A stretch of 4,958 nt of DNA. Origin: Escherichia coli (GTDB lineage Bacteria; Pseudomonadota; Gammaproteobacteria; Enterobacterales; Enterobacteriaceae). Shown piece by piece: positions 1 to 4,796 of this stretch. The notes beneath the pieces were generated by a model that saw nothing but the letters and a program-made list of their open reading frames with translations, was not told the origin of the DNA and did not search any database. The stretch lies in assembly GCF_036507355.1 (NCBI RefSeq), contig NZ_AP027883.1; one strand, 5' to 3'. Position 1 is the first letter of the stretch; the number at the start of each line of letters is the position of its first letter. Both the position numbers and the translations under genes were made by a program.

Positions 1-124
1 AACCAGCCTCGACACCATCAAGAGCTGGGAAACCGGACGCCGTAACCCGACCGGACTGGCGGCGAAGGTACTGGCAACCATCCAGGCGAACCCGAAATTC
101 TTCCAGGAACTGGCGGCGCACTAA
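1..124 (+). CDS. higA: 3' part of a HigA2-like XRE-family helix-turn-helix antitoxin gene (5' part is at the window end; nt 1 is the third base of a codon split across the window boundary)
   Basis: Reading from nt 2 gives TSLDTIKSWETGRRNPTGLAAKVLATIQANPKFFQELAAH followed by TAA at 122-124. The SLDTIKSWETGRRNP stretch is the second helix and turn of a classic XRE-type HTH. It continues in frame from the partial ORF at 4798-4958. Confidence 0.75.
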   Translation, partial: TSLDTIKSWETGRRNPTGLAAKVLATIQANPKFFQELAAH

Positions 125-272
125 GCCGTTGTGACAGAAGGATTCGACAGGCGAGGCCGTTCGCGTGTAATTTAACGGCAACAGAAAAAACAAAGCCCCG
201 GAAATCATGTCATATCTTGGCGGATCGCATGATAACCAGGGCCAGGTCGAAACCTTGAAAGGATATTAGCAC

Positions 273-323
273 ATGAAACGTGCCAGACAACAGCCCGCCA
301 TAAGCGCAGGGCGAATTGAATAA
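273..323 (+). promoter_or_regulatory. Candidate 16-codon leader mini-ORF (MKRARQQPAISAGRIE) whose stop overlaps the rep start; possible translational-coupling element
   Basis: ATG at 273-275 preceded by AAGGA (259-263) at 9 nt spacing; in-frame TAA at 321-323 lies 3 nt after the TTG at 316 that opens the rep frame (aTTGAATAA). Purely sequence-based, no homology support. Confidence 0.25.
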
Positions 324-1284
324 CGCAGTACTCGAACTTTTCAACGACCGCTTACCGCACAAGCCGTACTTTTCGGACGATCTGCACTTTGGTGTACGCA
401 TTGCCGGTAAGGAACGCGCCATTCTGGCGAAATACATCCAGTTCAATCAGCCTCACGCCATGTTCTGGCTGGGATTCGACGTCGATCGCGCCGGTGCCGC
501 TATTGACTGGAGCGACCGCAATGCCCCCGCGCCGACACTGACGATCACCAACCCCGAAAACGGGCACGCGCACCTGCTTTACGCGCTGAAAACCCCGATA
601 CGTACCGCGCCAGACGGAAAAATGAAGCCATTACGCTACGCAGCTGCCGTAGAGAACGCGCTACGTAAAAAATTAGAGGCTGATGCGGGGTATTCGGGAC
701 TAATCTGCAAAAATCCGAACCACGGACACTGGAAAATTGCCGTATGGCAGCCGGAACTCTACACGCTGGACTGGTTGGCTGACTTTCTTGACCTGAACGC
801 AGCGAACGAAAAAGACATCGTTGATGACTACGGCTTAGGCCGTAACTGCACCTTGTTCGACAAGACCCGTAAGTGGGCATACCGCGCTATCCGTCAGGGC
901 TGGCCGGAGTATGAGCAGTGGCTGCAAGCCTGCTATGAGCGGGCTAGTGCTTACAACCTGCAATTTGCTGTGCCTCTGGATGAAAATGAGGTGAACGGGA
1001 TTGCTAAAAGCATTGCTAATTGGACAATATGCAATATGTCAGAATTCGAATTTAGAGAATACGTAAAGAAAACTCACACTTCAAAAATACAAGCTTTGAG
1101 AGGTAAGATTGGAGGTCGCAAAAGCAAAGGTGGAGGGCGTAGGAAAAATTCTAGTTGCCCCACATCAGAACGAACTACAAAGCCATGGGTTTTACTTGGT
1201 ATTAGTCGTTCGACTTATTACAGGAAAAAATCAAATAAATTTAAGGCTGATTTAAATGTCCAACCAGAAGAGTTTGAATATTGA
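316..1284 (+). CDS. rep: ColE2-type plasmid replication initiator Rep (plasmid-specific primase), probable TTG start
   Basis: 322-aa ORF. The N-terminal two thirds (LPHKPY, QPHAMFWLGFDVDR, NPENGHAHLLYAL, YSGLICKNPNHGHW, GLGRNCTLFDKTRKWAYR) and the C-terminal KPWVLLGISRSTYYRK match my recollection of the ColE2 Rep family. There is no in-frame ATG between the upstream stop (301-303) and residue 48, so TTG 316 is the only plausible start; the Shine-Dalgarno is weak (AGGG at 308-311). Confidence 0.85.
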   Translation: MNNAVLELFNDRLPHKPYFSDDLHFGVRIAGKERAILAKYIQFNQPHAMFWLGFDVDRAGAAIDWSDRNAPAPTLTITNPENGHAHLLYALKTPIRTAPDGKMKPLRYAAAVENALRKKLEADAGYSGLICKNPNHGHWKIAVWQPELYTLDWLADFLDLNAANEKDIVDDYGLGRNCTLFDKTRKWAYRAIRQGWPEYEQWLQACYERASAYNLQFAVPLDENEVNGIAKSIANWTICNMSEFEFREYVKKTHTSKIQALRGKIGGRKSKGGGRRKNSSCPTSERTTKPWVLLGISRSTYYRKKSNKFKADLNVQPEEFEY

Positions 1285-2275
1285 GTTGCTTAGGTGTCTC
1301 GCAGTAATTTCAGTGATTTTGATACATATGACCATGGGGCATTTTTACGATGCCTTGCTCATGCATGAAAATAAATTGTCATGGATTGTTAGTAATCTTT
1401 ACTACTCGTTAACTAGGTTTTGCGTCCCTATTTTTTTTATTATATCAGCTTATTTGGTTTTTAATAATAAATCCAATAAGAAATGGCATGAAAGATTAGT
1501 AAGACTTGGCTTGCCATTCGTCGCATGGTCGGCTATTTATTATGTGTACGGAGGAGGGCGCGATGCCTCGGAATTCCTAAAAAAAATACTAACAGAAAAC
1601 ACATCATTTCATCTTTGGTTTTTTCCTCCTTTTATAGGTTACACTCTTCTTCTTCCTGCGATCAAAAGTTTATTCATCAGTGAGAATAAAGATAAATTCA
1701 AATATATTTTCGTTATCATTTTTTTATCGTCCATCTTCACCCCTTCATTAATAATGCTGCTAAATTATTTTATTGGTGGCTATTCGTTTATCTATGGGAT
1801 AAGTAATTTTTGTTTAACGCTACCACCTTTGTTAGTATATGGTTTCGCATTTTCTTATTTTTACAAAAAAGTTAACGTGGTGAGTTGGTTTGTGGGGTAC
1901 TTAGTTATAATAATACTCAATATGATGATTAATATCATTATATCTAATAAGCTTGGCACACCTAATGAATGGTTTTATGGCTATACATCAGTTCTGGTTT
2001 TTATTTCTTCTTTTGTTTTATTCAACGTAGTCATGTCAATGAATCTTTCATTTCTTCCAGAAATGGCTGGTAAGGTTGTTTTGATTGTAGGACAGTGCTC
2101 ACTTGGAATATATTTATCTCATTGGTTGGTGTTTTTAATTTTGAGTAAGCATGGTTTATTGTTTTCTGGTAGAGCCATTGTTGATCCAATACTAAATACA
2201 GTAATAGTCTTTTGTGCTTCTATCGCTTTTACATTAGTAGTTCGAATTATTAAACCATTGCGCTATATCTTGTAG
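1256..2275 (+). CDS. Integral-membrane acyltransferase family 3 protein (AT3 / OafA-Oac-like O-acetyltransferase), substrate unknown
   Basis: 339-aa ORF, very AT-rich, hydrophobic throughout (multiple predicted transmembrane segments). N-terminal LLRCLAVISVILIH fits the AT3 first-helix signature R-x2-A-x3-V-x3-H, and FFIISAYLVF resembles the second conserved AT3 motif. ATG at 1256 is preceded by AAGG (1243-1246). The start overlaps the last 29 nt of rep. Stop TAG at 2273-2275. Confidence 0.8.
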   Translation: MSNQKSLNIELLRCLAVISVILIHMTMGHFYDALLMHENKLSWIVSNLYYSLTRFCVPIFFIISAYLVFNNKSNKKWHERLVRLGLPFVAWSAIYYVYGGGRDASEFLKKILTENTSFHLWFFPPFIGYTLLLPAIKSLFISENKDKFKYIFVIIFLSSIFTPSLIMLLNYFIGGYSFIYGISNFCLTLPPLLVYGFAFSYFYKKVNVVSWFVGYLVIIILNMMINIIISNKLGTPNEWFYGYTSVLVFISSFVLFNVVMSMNLSFLPEMAGKVVLIVGQCSLGIYLSHWLVFLILSKHGLLFSGRAIVDPILNTVIVFCASIAFTLVVRIIKPLRYIL

Positions 2276-2284
2276 CTCAATGGT

Positions 2285-2323
2285 TGTGAGACCAAAAACA
2301 AGCCTATATCAGATAACAGCCCT
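2285..2323. other. Probable ColE2-type replication origin (Rep binding and primer synthesis site)
   Basis: tgaGACCAaaaacAAGCCTaTATCAGATAACAGCcc closely resembles the ColE2-P9 minimal origin as I recall it (TGAGACCAGATAAGCCTTATCAGATAACAGCGCCC). In ColE2 plasmids the origin lies just downstream of rep; here it follows the cargo gene instead. Confidence 0.5.
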
Positions 2324-2346
2324 CTTTAGCAGAGGGCTGTTTTTTT
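2317..2346 (+). terminator. Rho-independent terminator closing the rep-acyltransferase transcription unit
   Basis: Perfect 9-bp stem CAGCCCTCT (2317-2325) / AGAGGGCTG (2331-2339) with 5-nt loop TTAGC, followed by a T7 run (2340-2346). Overlaps the 3' end of the origin-like sequence. Confidence 0.6.
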
Positions 2347-2379
2347 GCAGCCAGCACAGAACCTGACATACTGCACTAC

Positions 2380-2400
2380 TCTTTAAGCCAGTACACACAG
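2380..2400 (-). other. ColE1-like oriT nick-site core (bom-type)
   Basis: The - strand reads ...GTGTGTACTGGCTTAAAGAG..., containing TACTGGCTTAA, which is identical to the nick core of the ColE1/pBR322 bom region (gtaTACTGG/CTTAActatg). It lies about 125 bp upstream of mbeC; a short inverted repeat CGTC...GACG (2401-2414) is adjacent. Confidence 0.5.
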
Positions 2401-2468
2401 CGTCCCCTCTGACGAGGTGCCACCGTGACTGGTTCAGGGGGCTCGCCGCCCCCCGAAACCCCCGGCAT

Positions 2469-2510
2469 CCACTGCGAAAAATTCTCACAGTGGTGCGAAT
2501 TTTTTCTCAG
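2469..2510 (+). promoter_or_regulatory. Putative mob operon promoter/operator with repeated TGCGAA-N3/4-TTCTCA elements
   Basis: Direct repeat TGCGAAaaaTTCTCAcag (2473-2490) and TGCGAAttttTTCTCAg (2494-2510), each containing a GAA-W-TTC near-palindrome, plus inverted repeat CCACTG (2469-2474) / CAGTGG (2488-2493). Sits immediately upstream of mbeC; a ribbon-helix-helix MobC-type protein would be a natural binder. No clear sigma70 hexamers assigned. Confidence 0.3.
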
Positions 2511-2518
2511 CGGAGCCT

Positions 2519-2845
2519 ATGGAAAAGCGAACGAAAGAGATAAAAATCCGGCTTACCGAAACCGAGCATCAGCGACTGCTTGATCGCTGCGACCGGACTC
2601 ACCTTGCGGAGTGGCTTCGTCAGCTCGGTCTGGGTGAACATACCTCCCGCAAGCGCCGTGTGCCTGAGGTGGCGCCCGAACTGCTGCGGCAGGTCAGCGG
2701 TATTGGCAATAACCTGAACCAGATTGCCCGCCGCCTGAACCAGGCTGATTCCCTGACGCCTTCTGAACGTGTCTCGCTGCTCGTCGTACTGACCAGCCTT
2801 GATCGGCAGCTTGGCGACCTGCTGGAGCAGAACCGTGATCGTTAA
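2519..2845 (+). CDS. mbeC: Mobilisation accessory protein MbeC/MobC (relaxosome DNA-binding protein)
   Basis: 108-aa ORF. TETEHQRLLDRCD, the LLRQVSGIGNNLNQIARRLN block and the overall length fit the ColE1 MbeC / MobC family as I recall it. GGAG at 2512-2515. Stop TAA (2843-2845) overlaps the relaxase GTG start. Confidence 0.8.
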   Translation: MEKRTKEIKIRLTETEHQRLLDRCDRTHLAEWLRQLGLGEHTSRKRRVPEVAPELLRQVSGIGNNLNQIARRLNQADSLTPSERVSLLVVLTSLDRQLGDLLEQNRDR

Positions 2846-4403
2846 AATTCACTCACGAGGTGCGGGTTCCGGCAGCGGGCCGGTAGATTACCTGTTGGGT
2901 AAAGACCGGCAGCGTGAACAGGCCTGCGTACTGCGTGGCAATCCTGAACATGTGCGTGAGCTGATCGACGGCTGCAACTTTGCCCGCGCCTACACTTCCG
3001 GCGTGCTTTCATTCCAGGAACCTGACATTGCAGACGCCGAGAAATCGCGCCTGATGGACGAATGGGAGCACACGCTGCTGACCGGACTCGACCGCGACCA
3101 GTACGCCTGCCTGTGGGTAGAGCATCGCGACAAGGGACGGCTTGAGCTGAATTTTGTCATCCCGAACATCGAATTGCAGAGTGGAAAACGCCTGCAACCC
3201 TACTTTGACCGCGCCGACCGTCCCCGCGTCAACGCCTGGCAGACCCTGACCAACGACCGGCTGGGGCTGCGCGACCCGAATGACCCGACCTACCGCCGTC
3301 CGCTGACGCAGGCCAGCGATCTGCCCCGCGACAAACAGCAGGCGGCAGAGAAAATCACCGCCGGCCTGATGAACCTGATGCAGCAGGGCGTGATCCGCAG
3401 CCGGCAGGACGTGGTGACGCAGCTGGAAAGCTACGGCCTGACCGTAGCGCGGGAAACGAAAAGCAGCATCAGCATTGCCGATCCGGACGGCGGCCGAAAT
3501 ATCCGGCTGAAAGGAATGATTTATGAGCGAGATTTTAAATTTGGCGAAGGGCTTCGAGGAGAAATCGAAGCAGCAGGCGCAGGATACCGAGCAGAGCGTG
3601 AAGCGCGAGTTCGCGAGGCTGGAGACGTCTATCAGCGCGGAACTGCAATCAAGCTCGCAGAGCATCAGCAACGCTATCCGCGAGCAGAACGGCAGGCTGA
3701 CGGGCATGATCAGAACCTCCGTTTCAGCGGCGATGGCGTGGGTATTCCTCTGCTTCGCCCTGCTGATCGGCATCATGGGGGGGATAATCTGGTTTCAGGG
3801 CACGATCATCACCTCGCGCCTGAGCGAAATGGACAGCTACAGCCAGCAGCTGGCGAACCTGAAAGCGAAAAGCGGCGCGGGCGTGGCGATCTACAGCGAC
3901 GACAAGCACCGGAACACCTACATGGTGGTGCTGCCGAAGCAGGCGCACGGCGTGGAAACCTATACATCGACGACCGACAACACCGTAGTGAAATACACGG
4001 CGAAATAACCCCGTCAGAGCGCCCTGAAACGACACAGCGCGTTTTTAACACCGAGGATGACCAAAACCATGACCGAGATGGAAAAACAGCTTCTGAGCGC
4101 CTTAGAGAGCTTACAGACAAGCTACGAGCAACAGCAGCAGGCGTGGCAGGACAGCTACAGCAGCTTGCAGCACATGTTCGAGGCTACCTCACAGGCGCTG
4201 ACGCACAGCGACCGGGTGTGTCAGCACTTGAGCAGTCAGGTAGAGAGCTTGCGCGCGCAGGTCGAGAGCTTGAGCAGGAACGTCAGCCGCTTGATGCGTT
4301 GATCAGGCAGCACGACCGCGCCTACGCCGAGAAGCTGCGTGAGCAGCAGCCAGAGCCGGAGCCGCAGAAAAAAACGACCCGCTACTATGGCCCCTCGATG
4401 TGA
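2835..4403 (+). CDS. mbeA: MOB-HEN (ColE1 MbeA-type) conjugative relaxase; start placed at GTG 2835 rather than the ATG at 2799 in the ORF track
   Basis: From GTG 2835 the protein starts MIVKIHSRGAGSGSGPVDYLL, putting the catalytic Tyr at residue 19 and the HEN motif at H97/E104/N106 (LWVEHRDKGRLELNFVIPN), the same numbering as ColE1 MbeA. GTG 2835 is in frame with ATG 2799 and overlaps the mbeC stop (GTGATCGTTAA). 522 aa; the C-terminal half is low-complexity and charged. Confidence 0.85.
   Translation: MIVKIHSRGAGSGSGPVDYLLGKDRQREQACVLRGNPEHVRELIDGCNFARAYTSGVLSFQEPDIADAEKSRLMDEWEHTLLTGLDRDQYACLWVEHRDKGRLELNFVIPNIELQSGKRLQPYFDRADRPRVNAWQTLTNDRLGLRDPNDPTYRRPLTQASDLPRDKQQAAEKITAGLMNLMQQGVIRSRQDVVTQLESYGLTVARETKSSISIADPDGGRNIRLKGMIYERDFKFGEGLRGEIEAAGAGYRAEREARVREAGDVYQRGTAIKLAEHQQRYPRAERQADGHDQNLRFSGDGVGIPLLRPADRHHGGDNLVSGHDHHLAPERNGQLQPAAGEPESEKRRGRGDLQRRQAPEHLHGGAAEAGARRGNLYIDDRQHRSEIHGEITPSERPETTQRVFNTEDDQNHDRDGKTASERLRELTDKLRATAAGVAGQLQQLAAHVRGYLTGADAQRPGVSALEQSGRELARAGRELEQERQPLDALIRQHDRAYAEKLREQQPEPEPQKKTTRYYGPSM
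3523..4008 (+). CDS. mbeB: MbeB-like mobilisation protein, nested in the +1 frame inside mbeA
   Basis: 161-aa ORF with AAGGA (3511-3515) 7 nt before the ATG; a charged N-terminal region followed by one hydrophobic segment (AAMAWVFLCFALLIGIMGGIIWF). Position and architecture match ColE1 mbeB; call is positional/architectural rather than from verified sequence identity. Confidence 0.6.
   Translation: MSEILNLAKGFEEKSKQQAQDTEQSVKREFARLETSISAELQSSSQSISNAIREQNGRLTGMIRTSVSAAMAWVFLCFALLIGIMGGIIWFQGTIITSRLSEMDSYSQQLANLKAKSGAGVAIYSDDKHRNTYMVVLPKQAHGVETYTSTTDNTVVKYTAK
4069..4302 (+). CDS. mbeD: MbeD-like mobilisation protein, nested in the +1 frame inside the 3' part of mbeA
   Basis: ORF track starts at ATG 4057 (no spacing after GAGG). 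The in-frame ATG 4069 (MTEMEKQLLSALESLQ...) has GAGGA 11 nt upstream and better fits the ColE1 MbeD start as I recall it. Coiled-coil-like repeats (QVESLRAQVESLSRNV). Same frame as mbeB. Confidence 0.55.
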   Translation: MTEMEKQLLSALESLQTSYEQQQQAWQDSYSSLQHMFEATSQALTHSDRVCQHLSSQVESLRAQVESLSRNVSRLMR

Positions 4404-4404
4404 C

Positions 4405-4460
4405 CGCTTTTCCGAAATCAGAATTAAGTGTACTATGTACTCCGTTAAAAACAGGAGACA
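4405..4460 (+). promoter_or_regulatory. Putative higBA promoter/operator region
   Basis: 60-bp gap between the mbeA stop and the higB start contains TTAAGTGTACTATGTACTCCGTTAA, with a GTAC-TAT-GTAC dyad (4427-4440) overlapping a possible -10 (TACTAT 4431-4436), then a strong AGGAG (4453-4457) 6 nt before the GTG. Toxin-antitoxin operators are typically palindromes overlapping the promoter. Confidence 0.3.
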
Positions 4461-4463
4461 GCC

Positions 4464-4796
4464 GTGAGTCACGCGATTGAGTTTATCGAGACCCCGATGT
4501 TTACCCGTCAGATAAAACAGATCGCCACGGATGAAGAACTCAGGGAGCTGCAAAAGACGCTGATTGAGTCGCCGGACAAAGGCGATCTCATTCAGAAAAC
4601 CGGCGGGCTGCGCAAAATCAGGATGGCGACGGGCAACCAGGGAAAAAGCGGCAGCGTGAGGGTGATTTACTTTCTGGCCACCGCCGAGGTGATCTATCTG
4701 GTGATGGCCTACCCGAAAAGCACCAAAGACAGCCTGACGGACGCGGAAAAAGCCGCGCTGAAGACGCTGACCCAACAACTGAAAGACGAGGTGTGA
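4464..4796 (+). CDS. higB: HigB2-like (RelE/ParE superfamily) type II toxin, GTG start
   Basis: 110-aa ORF. TGGLRKIRMATGNQGKSGSVRVIYF and the downstream AEVIYLVMAYPKSTKDSLTD match the HigB-2 toxin family (GTGGLRKIR...GKRGGSRIIYYF...YLL..Y.K pattern) as recalled from Vibrio HigB-2. Toxin-first gene order is typical of hig modules. Stop TGA 4794-4796, 1 nt before the antitoxin ATG. Confidence 0.8.
   Translation: MSHAIEFIETPMFTRQIKQIATDEELRELQKTLIESPDKGDLIQKTGGLRKIRMATGNQGKSGSVRVIYFLATAEVIYLVMAYPKSTKDSLTDAEKAALKTLTQQLKDEV

Follow-up and report, generated by a model that had tools for sequence, protein, structure and literature searches.

In ColE2-P9, a ppApGpA primer is synthesized at the origin in a Rep-dependent reaction, and replication needs DNA polymerase I (Pol I). 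The AGA primer has been named for ColE2-type replication (PMC5304414). In two plasmids with a ColE2-type Rep, pUB6060 of Plesiomonas shigelloides and pHW66 of Rahnella, a low-GC insert lies between repA and oriV, with genes described as 'cistronic with repA' (PMC2831885), and the title of Avison 2001 reports pUB6060 to be independent of Pol I. The oriV of a further relative, pMUT2 of Escherichia coli Nissle 1917 (NZ_CP058219.1), has been cut down by stepwise truncation to 26 bp, which replicate at about 22 copies per cell (bioRxiv 10.1101/2023.06.05.543671). Here we analyze a 4958-nt stretch of E. coli DNA (contig NZ_AP027883.1; hereafter the window) in which an acyltransferase gene separates rep from a ColE2-type origin followed by a hairpin. 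Why is rep parted from its origin? A first-pass annotation had viewed this layout as a departure from the ColE2-type norm that could couple cargo expression, Rep supply and origin activity. We find that the window makes up one entire mobilizable plasmid of 4958 bp, which is ColE2-like and belongs to the pUB6060/pMUT2/Col(Ye4449) subfamily, and that members of this subfamily normally carry cargo between rep and origin, a layout already on record: new cargo in a known architecture. The explanation that we regard as probable is a cargo slot between rep and oriV filled by an acquired low-GC cassette, with a rep-cargo operon ending at an ancestral hairpin and cassettes exchanged by recombination.

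The origin and the slot upstream of it

The Rep protein of the window has the composition of a ColE2-type initiator: an archaeo-eukaryotic-type primase domain (Pfam Replicase (AEP), 157 bits), PriCT_1 (34.8 bits) and a C-terminal DNA-binding domain, residues 176-305 of which align to that of ColE2-P9 Rep (3VW4, E 6e-29) and are followed by a 17-aa tail. As the ColE2 origin reference, we used the colicin E2 plasmid pIGMS5 (NC_010883.1), whose Rep DNA-binding domain is 100% identical to ColE2-P9 chain 3VW4. Alignment to a characterized family origin, which the first-pass annotation had named as a check, shows the oriV of the window to be identical to that of pIGMS5 at 29 of 32 aligned positions. 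The origin is about 30 bp long, and its conserved core, including the primer site (CAGATAAC), is exact and unique in the plasmid. The core ATCAGATAACAG occupies 2308-2319, the left element GAGAC occupies 2288-2292, and the 14-mer TATCAGATAACAGC has a single exact occurrence in the window, at 2307-2320. By its sequence, the AGA primer site would lie at 2311-2313.

In pIGMS5, the TGA stop codon of rep falls inside the left edge of the origin and the core lies 15 nt downstream, in agreement with what the first-pass annotation had said of ColE2. In the window, 1001 nt separate the rep stop from the left edge of the origin, which bears out the approximately 1 kb of coding sequence first reported there, and the gap to the core is 1023 nt versus 15 nt in ColE2/Col156 plasmids. 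The sequence TGAGAC in the left part of the origin (window 2286-2292) retains the TGA that is the ColE2 rep stop codon. In pMUT2 (747-753) the corresponding TGA terminates the KwaB-like cargo gene; that of the window is non-coding, since the acyltransferase gene already ends 10 nt before it, at a TAG codon (2273-2275).

How unusual is this separation? A clade sample was assembled from 14 complete PLSDB/RefSeq plasmids and 16 GTDB genome contigs whose Rep N-domains are at least 82% identical; about 380 PLSDB/RefSeq records belong to this Rep clade at a threshold of 80% identity. In all 30 members, the rep stop and the origin core are 532-2549 nt apart, at 32-40% GC; in replicons with a Rep of 39-68% identity, including the ColE2 archetype, the core follows the stop by 9-82 nt. 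The insert is thus shared by the whole sampled clade, and since it had been described for pHW66 and pUB6060, the layout cannot be counted as an exception. About 70% of the relatives carry co-directional cargo that abuts or overlaps rep. Of 13 genome-contig slots, 10 have the start of the first cargo gene within -56 to +30 nt of the rep stop, as is also the case in L020, L021, L025 and pMUT2; cargo genes of unrelated kinds repeatedly overlap the stop with their starts, by -1 to -14 nt. The opposite arrangement, with cargo convergent to rep, was seen in 8 of the 27 distinct relatives, among them p58 of enterotoxigenic E. coli (ETEC; dCTP deaminase), pYR5 (RexAB) and plasmids with J-domain genes.

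The contents of the slot in relatives are largely connected with phage defense: Kiwa, RexA/B, an AbiU-like AIPR protein, dCTP deaminase, GmrSD/DUF262 proteins, an OLD/GajA-like (Gabija-like) ATPase, an AriA/PtuA-like ATPase (PARIS/Septu-like), TIR with DUF4231, a helicase, a reverse transcriptase, a GTPase and a type IIG restriction-modification enzyme. An orphan methyltransferase, a glycosyltransferase and a transglycosylase also occur. Known or candidate anti-phage genes fill most of the slots of loci L001-L003, L014, L018-L027 and L031-L053. A literature search in a limited collection, which is no proof of novelty, returned nothing specific on the rep-oriV slot as a defense hotspot.

In the window, the slot is occupied by a single gene whose start codon lies 29 nt inside the 3' end of rep (1256-1284), as first annotated, with a weak AAGG Shine-Dalgarno sequence before it (1243-1246). 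Its product has a full-length Acyl_transf_3 domain (101 bits versus a cut-off of 31; profile positions 3-324 of 326). Homologues of 50-56% identity are 339-345 aa long with 100% query coverage, and because they cover the entire protein, the ATG at 1256 is supported. The protein matches a PHROG family of phage O-acetyltransferases (E 5e-13), and homologues of 51-53% identity adjoin gtrA/gtrB/GtrC-type glucosyltransferase genes, in one case together with a phage integrase gene. Of the homologue contexts, one is a small prophage-like contig (gtrABC, NinB, integrase), another a contig with a GtrC-type glucosyltransferase gene and no rep, and a third a chromosomal gtr locus. That the homologues on small contigs might likewise be plasmid cargo was rejected for both small contigs checked. 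The cargo is probably a surface-polysaccharide (O-antigen type) O-acetyltransferase, and the slot would hold a horizontally acquired low-GC cassette whose product modifies O-antigen or another surface polysaccharide.

Table 1. Coordinates of the features identified in the window
Feature	Position	Strand	Description and basis
rep leader/control region	194-305	+	like PK-repBA pseudoknot element; Rfam RF01089, 39.8 bits, E 2e-6
rep	316-1284	+	322 aa, TTG start; ColE2-type initiator/primase
Variable low-GC cassette	1026-2285		rep 3' end (last ~85 aa of Rep), acyltransferase gene, origin left flank
Acyl_transf_3 membrane protein gene	1256-2275	+	339 aa; Pfam
oriV, ColE2 type	2286-2320	+	GTGAGACCAAAAACAAGCCTATATCAGATAACAGC; alignment to ColE2 and 13 relatives
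Intrinsic-terminator-like hairpin and run of seven T	2315-2346	+	stem 2315-2325/2331-2341, loop 2326-2330, T at 2340-2346
Conserved downstream backbone	2347-4403	+	intergenic region, mobC, relaxase; 96-98% identity to relatives
mobC	2519-2845	+	Pfam NikA-like/MobC
Relaxase gene mbeA/mobA	about 2835-4403	+	Pfam Relaxase
mbeB	3523-4008	+	nested in relaxase gene, other frame; Pfam MbeB_N
mbeD	4057-4302	+	nested in relaxase gene, other frame; Pfam MbeD_MobD
higB/relE-like toxin gene	4464-4796	+	Pfam RelE
NadS/HigA-type antitoxin gene	4798 across window end to 1-123	+	

Transcription of the interval and the hairpin at the origin

The acyltransferase gene is most likely the last gene of a leader-rep-cargo operon, because its start overlaps rep by 29 nt and a standard scan predicted no promoter or terminator between the two genes. 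Co-transcription of rep and cargo is therefore plausible, and the transcript would end at the hairpin and T-run just after oriV. The replicon itself appears independent of such co-transcription, since the cargo of more than a quarter of the distinct relatives (the 8 of 27) is convergent. Might the cargo instead be an independent transcription unit, with its promoter inside the AT-rich 3' end of rep and an incidental 29-nt overlap? A looser scan found two weak promoter-like hexamer pairs (8 of 12 matches) in the low-GC rep 3' end, at 1001-1028 and 1080-1109, and this end of rep travels with the cargo as one cassette and so could carry the cargo's own signals. However, neither site passes the standard scan, and the short overlaps that recur with unrelated cargo genes are typical of operon-style coupling. 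We consider an independent unit unlikely and favor the operon.

The hairpin has the structure of an intrinsic terminator: an 11-bp stem with six G-C pairs, a 5-nt loop and seven T. As RNA it folds at -19.8 kcal/mol (z = -4.0), and none of 200 shuffled sequences was as stable. The first-pass annotation had placed the origin-like sequence at 2285-2323 and the terminator at 2317-2339, correct to within a few bases, and had rightly noted that the stem shares bases with the 3' edge of the origin; the shared bases are 2315-2319/2320, the first five to six of the hairpin and the last of the origin. Hairpins of -8.8 to -21.7 kcal/mol occupy the same position in 13 distinct relatives, with stems that differ by clade (GCCCTCT/AGAGGGC; GCCCTGC/GCGGGGC; GCGCC/GGCGT in ColE2 and Col156). 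In the alignment, 91% of the cells are paired and three pairs are changed on both sides in a compensatory manner; in a test with 500 shuffled alignments, none reached the value of the real one on four of the five measures, whereas 8 did so on the remaining one. These figures count the ColE2/Col156 hairpins as unpaired, as MAFFT placed them one column off register, though each folds alone. In the ColE2/Col156 plasmids, which lack cargo, the hairpin and T-run likewise stand straight after ...ACAG. By this token the terminator-on-origin geometry is ancestral to ColE2-type replicons and did not arise by cargo insertion.

The 26-bp oriV of pMUT2, ACAAAACAACCTATATCAGATAACAG, ends with ...GATAACAG and corresponds to pMUT2 752-777 and to window 2291-2319. 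The deposited pMUT2-mini sequence starts with ACAAAACAACCTATATCAGATAACAG and continues with a kanamycin resistance (KanR) cassette directly after ...GATAACAG, without the hairpin. As the pMUT2 origin ends at ...ACAG, the hairpin is dispensable for replication in this close relative. On the simplest reading of the sequence, the hairpin is an intrinsic terminator that would end rep or rep-cargo transcription and insulate oriT and the mob genes: an ancestral ColE2-type feature outside the origin proper.

Does the geometry nevertheless link the expression of the cargo with the supply of Rep and the firing of the origin, perhaps through read-through transcription that activates or inhibits the origin or displaces Rep? 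An RNA polymerase transcribing rep and cargo must pass the Rep-binding and primer sites before it reaches the terminator, the position of the hairpin relative to ...ACAG is strictly conserved, and most relatives have co-directional cargo at rep. Yet the cargo-free ColE2/Col156 plasmids share the geometry, so the insertion did not create it; the 26-bp oriV of pMUT2 works at its copy number of about 22 with foreign DNA directly downstream; and the convergent orientation is common. ColE2 replication in vitro needs Rep and Pol I and is not known to need RNA polymerase, and Rep works in trans, which also counts against coupling. No RNAII/RNAI or other transcription-dependent origin element (ColE1 class B or pAMbeta1 class D type) was found in the window; the homologous 26-bp oriV suffices in pMUT2-mini, and by this indirect evidence from a relative the origin does not appear to be of a transcription-dependent class. 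What was originally suggested thus holds in part: the predicted passage of rep-cargo transcription through the origin, to stop there, agrees with the lack of a predicted promoter or terminator between the genes, and functional coupling of cargo transcription to origin activity or to Rep supply is not supported. We judge the coupling device very improbable. According to the operon reading, Rep would act in trans on the approximately 30-bp origin (2291-2319), and therefore the 1-kb separation of rep and origin would carry no mechanistic cost.

The origin of ColE2 includes a 'subregion III' with a post-binding function. That the hairpin is a replication element, either in this sense or as a single-strand DNA hairpin that stabilizes the opened origin, is equally doubtful: its left arm starts inside the origin, the region still folds well as single-stranded DNA (-13.5 kcal/mol, z -4.5) and the hairpin is kept even with convergent cargo, where no rep-cargo transcript should arrive, but the pMUT2 26-bp oriV has neither hairpin arm beyond ...ACAG, in every case it is the rep strand alone that has a T-run after the stem, which is the signature of an intrinsic terminator, and the stems differ completely between clades (GCGCC/GGCGT versus GCCCTCT/AGAGGGC) while hairpin and T-run are retained.

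Proposed exchange of the cassette and the pairing of Rep tail with origin

The GC content of the cassette is 30-39% versus 52-60% for the backbone. Homology to relatives breaks in the 3' end of rep (1025/1091) and resumes at 2286/2296/2303, and the cargo cassette DNA has no match in PLSDB, where just the rep 3' end was matched, at ~70%. Among eight circular variants of the plasmid (L006-L013), 3-4 sites differ in 745-2340 and about 37 sites (~9%) in 335-744, and the mob genes differ by several percent. The near identity of 745-2340 against the divergence of 335-744 indicates a recombination junction inside rep.

The two ends of the exchanged piece also vary together. A Rep tail with SRS or SRA pairs with GAGAC or TAGAC (one GGGAC) as the left element of the origin, and a tail with SRR pairs with GCAC; the rule held in 30 of 30 cases spread over several Rep clades, with each of the two pairings present in more than a single clade (loci L001-L056). 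The pair in the window is the tail GISRSTYYRK (1210-1240) and GAGAC. In L046, a third, unrelated Rep tail occurs with a third left element (GCGTTC). The C-terminus of ColE2 Rep has a role in origin recognition (structure 3VW4). The pairing looks like a Rep-origin specificity code; it fits this role and suggests that the cargo moves along with a matched specificity pair. Plasmids would swap cassettes through homologous recombination, with one crossover in the 5' two-thirds of rep and the other in the origin core and backbone, all of which are conserved, and the exchanged piece would comprise the C-terminal DNA-binding tail of Rep, the matching left element of the origin and the cargo. Since the cargo lies between the two halves of the pair, recombination at these places would move all three together. 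As part of the rep operon, the cargo would also be expressed under the plasmid's copy-number control circuit. We propose tentatively, with somewhat less than even confidence, that the rep-oriV interval is dedicated to the exchange of genes for phage defense and surface modification, and that cargo is held there between the Rep-tail and origin-left halves and under that control circuit. The literature searched gave no description of such an exchange site beyond the bare mention of an insert.

Several points weigh against the overall explanation. Co-transcription and termination are predictions here, and the two weak promoter-like sites in the rep 3' end make an internal cargo promoter possible. 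The oriV was assigned by homology, and its spacing between GAGAC and core is three bases longer than in pMUT2. The pMUT2-mini sequence was compared over its first 400 bases. The association between Rep tail and origin-left element may reflect few evolutionary events. Finally, the acyltransferase has no NCBIfam or PADLOC match.

The plasmid and its place among known relatives

The window is a closed circle, because the antitoxin gene spans its ends and these ends are contiguous in relatives: in the alignments, the window end runs on into the window start in every close relative. Eight independent contigs of ~5 kb that code for the identical acyltransferase all have assembler-type terminal overlaps and a unit length of 4953-4961 bp. 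Exact copies of the acyltransferase protein appear in 37 indexed blocks of the assembly collection, and the plasmid recurs in assemblies and metagenomes; it was not found in PLSDB, where its backbone matches 1268 records, the closest of them at 94-98% identity. The gene order is NadS/HigA-type antitoxin, leader, rep, Acyl_transf_3, ColE2-type origin, hairpin with T-run, mobC, relaxase and RelE/HigB-type toxin. As in the rest of the subfamily, mob genes of the ColE1 superfamily (mobC, mbeA, mbeB and mbeD, by Pfam and by synteny with relatives) adjoin oriV, and the Rep N-domain shares 91-97% identity with Col(Ye4449)-typed records and 83% with pMUT2. The intergenic region from 2347 up to mobC is the probable oriT.

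The match of the rep leader to RF01089 is below the gathering score of 45. A 16-aa leader open reading frame, read from the sequence at 273-323, overlaps the TTG start of rep by 8 nt, and the other strand shows weak similarity to CopA at 187-270. PK-repBA is the leader/pseudoknot element of I-complex plasmids. Upstream of rep it exceeds the gathering score in pMUT2 (50.4 bits), L037, L034, L033, L042 and L044; no such match was detected upstream of rep in the ColE2 or Col156 plasmids. We considered whether the leader is specific to the insert-bearing clade, and this was ruled out by its presence upstream of rep in the insert-free loci L033, L042, L044 and L028. The rep gene of the Dickeya plasmid pQZH3 (L027), deposited as complete, seems frameshifted or truncated (197 aa from the aligned start, none annotated), so that either the replicon is defective or the sequence contains an error.

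Copies of the origin are found in other settings. The 5.6-kb Edwardsiella ictaluri contig L033 has three origin cores downstream of one rep, at 578-596, 2755-2773 and 3821-3839, and every core has a separate hairpin; the first core comes 23 nt behind the rep stop. At 4315-4556, the ColE1/Rop-type tet(A) plasmid NZ_CP063352.1, which has no ColE2 rep, carries the origin-hairpin-oriT segment (window 2277-2520) at 95% identity beside a ScaI-family restriction-modification system; recombination left the segment there as an orphan ColE2-type origin. Matches of 60 nt to origin and hairpin (90% identity) occur on many E. coli plasmids of 24-270 kb, for example at 7898-7957 of NZ_CP009074.1, and also on contigs without a co-directional rep within 4.5 kb (L048, L055). 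Plasmids of the pUTI89 type contain rep fragments that are unannotated.

What does the layout mean? Correctly read, the original finding changes little, as it is the typical layout of a known plasmid subfamily. The family-level pattern of a defense-rich slot, a flanking co-varying specificity pair and exchange within rep is more interesting than the single layout. The mobilizable enterobacterial plasmids of this very common family, ~5 kb in size and represented by the PLSDB records counted above, keep one slot bounded by essential replicon sequences. With mostly phage-defense genes in relatives and a probable O-antigen acetyltransferase here, this slot is a simple place to seek new defense genes. 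The covariation of Rep tail and origin-left element is a testable specificity code for the design of compatible ColE2-type vectors.

Among known systems, the likeness is greatest in the backbone of p58 of ETEC H10407 (NC_017723.1) and other Col(Ye4449)-typed plasmids, which is 95-97% identical and has the same rep-oriV slot; p58 differs in carrying an anti-phage dCTP deaminase gene in the slot on the opposite strand, and an SRR Rep tail with a TTGCAC origin-left element. The plasmid pMUT2 shares the order leader-rep-cargo-oriV-hairpin-mobC, the similar Rep N-domain and an identical origin core; its kwaA start overlaps rep by 11 nt and its KwaB-like gene ends at the origin. It differs in its Kiwa cargo (kwaA/kwaB), its RelBE toxin-antitoxin, the stem GCCCTGC/GCGGGGC and the shorter GAGAC-core spacing. 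Compared by the published description only, pUB6060 and pHW66 resemble the window in a ColE2-type Rep, a conserved origin, a low-GC insert and ColE1-type mobA/B/C/D, whereas the inserts are unrelated, that of pHW66 holding an ATPase-like open reading frame and a hypothetical one (PMC2831885). More distant is the ColE2-P9-type pIGMS5, which has in common with the window the primase, PriCT and C-terminal DNA-binding domains of Rep, the origin, and a hairpin with T-run right after ...ACAGC. Its Rep N-domain is 60% identical, its origin overlaps the rep stop without cargo, and it has no PK-repBA-like match, a weaker hairpin (-9.1 kcal/mol), a MOBQ relaxase, and colicin, immunity and lysis genes.

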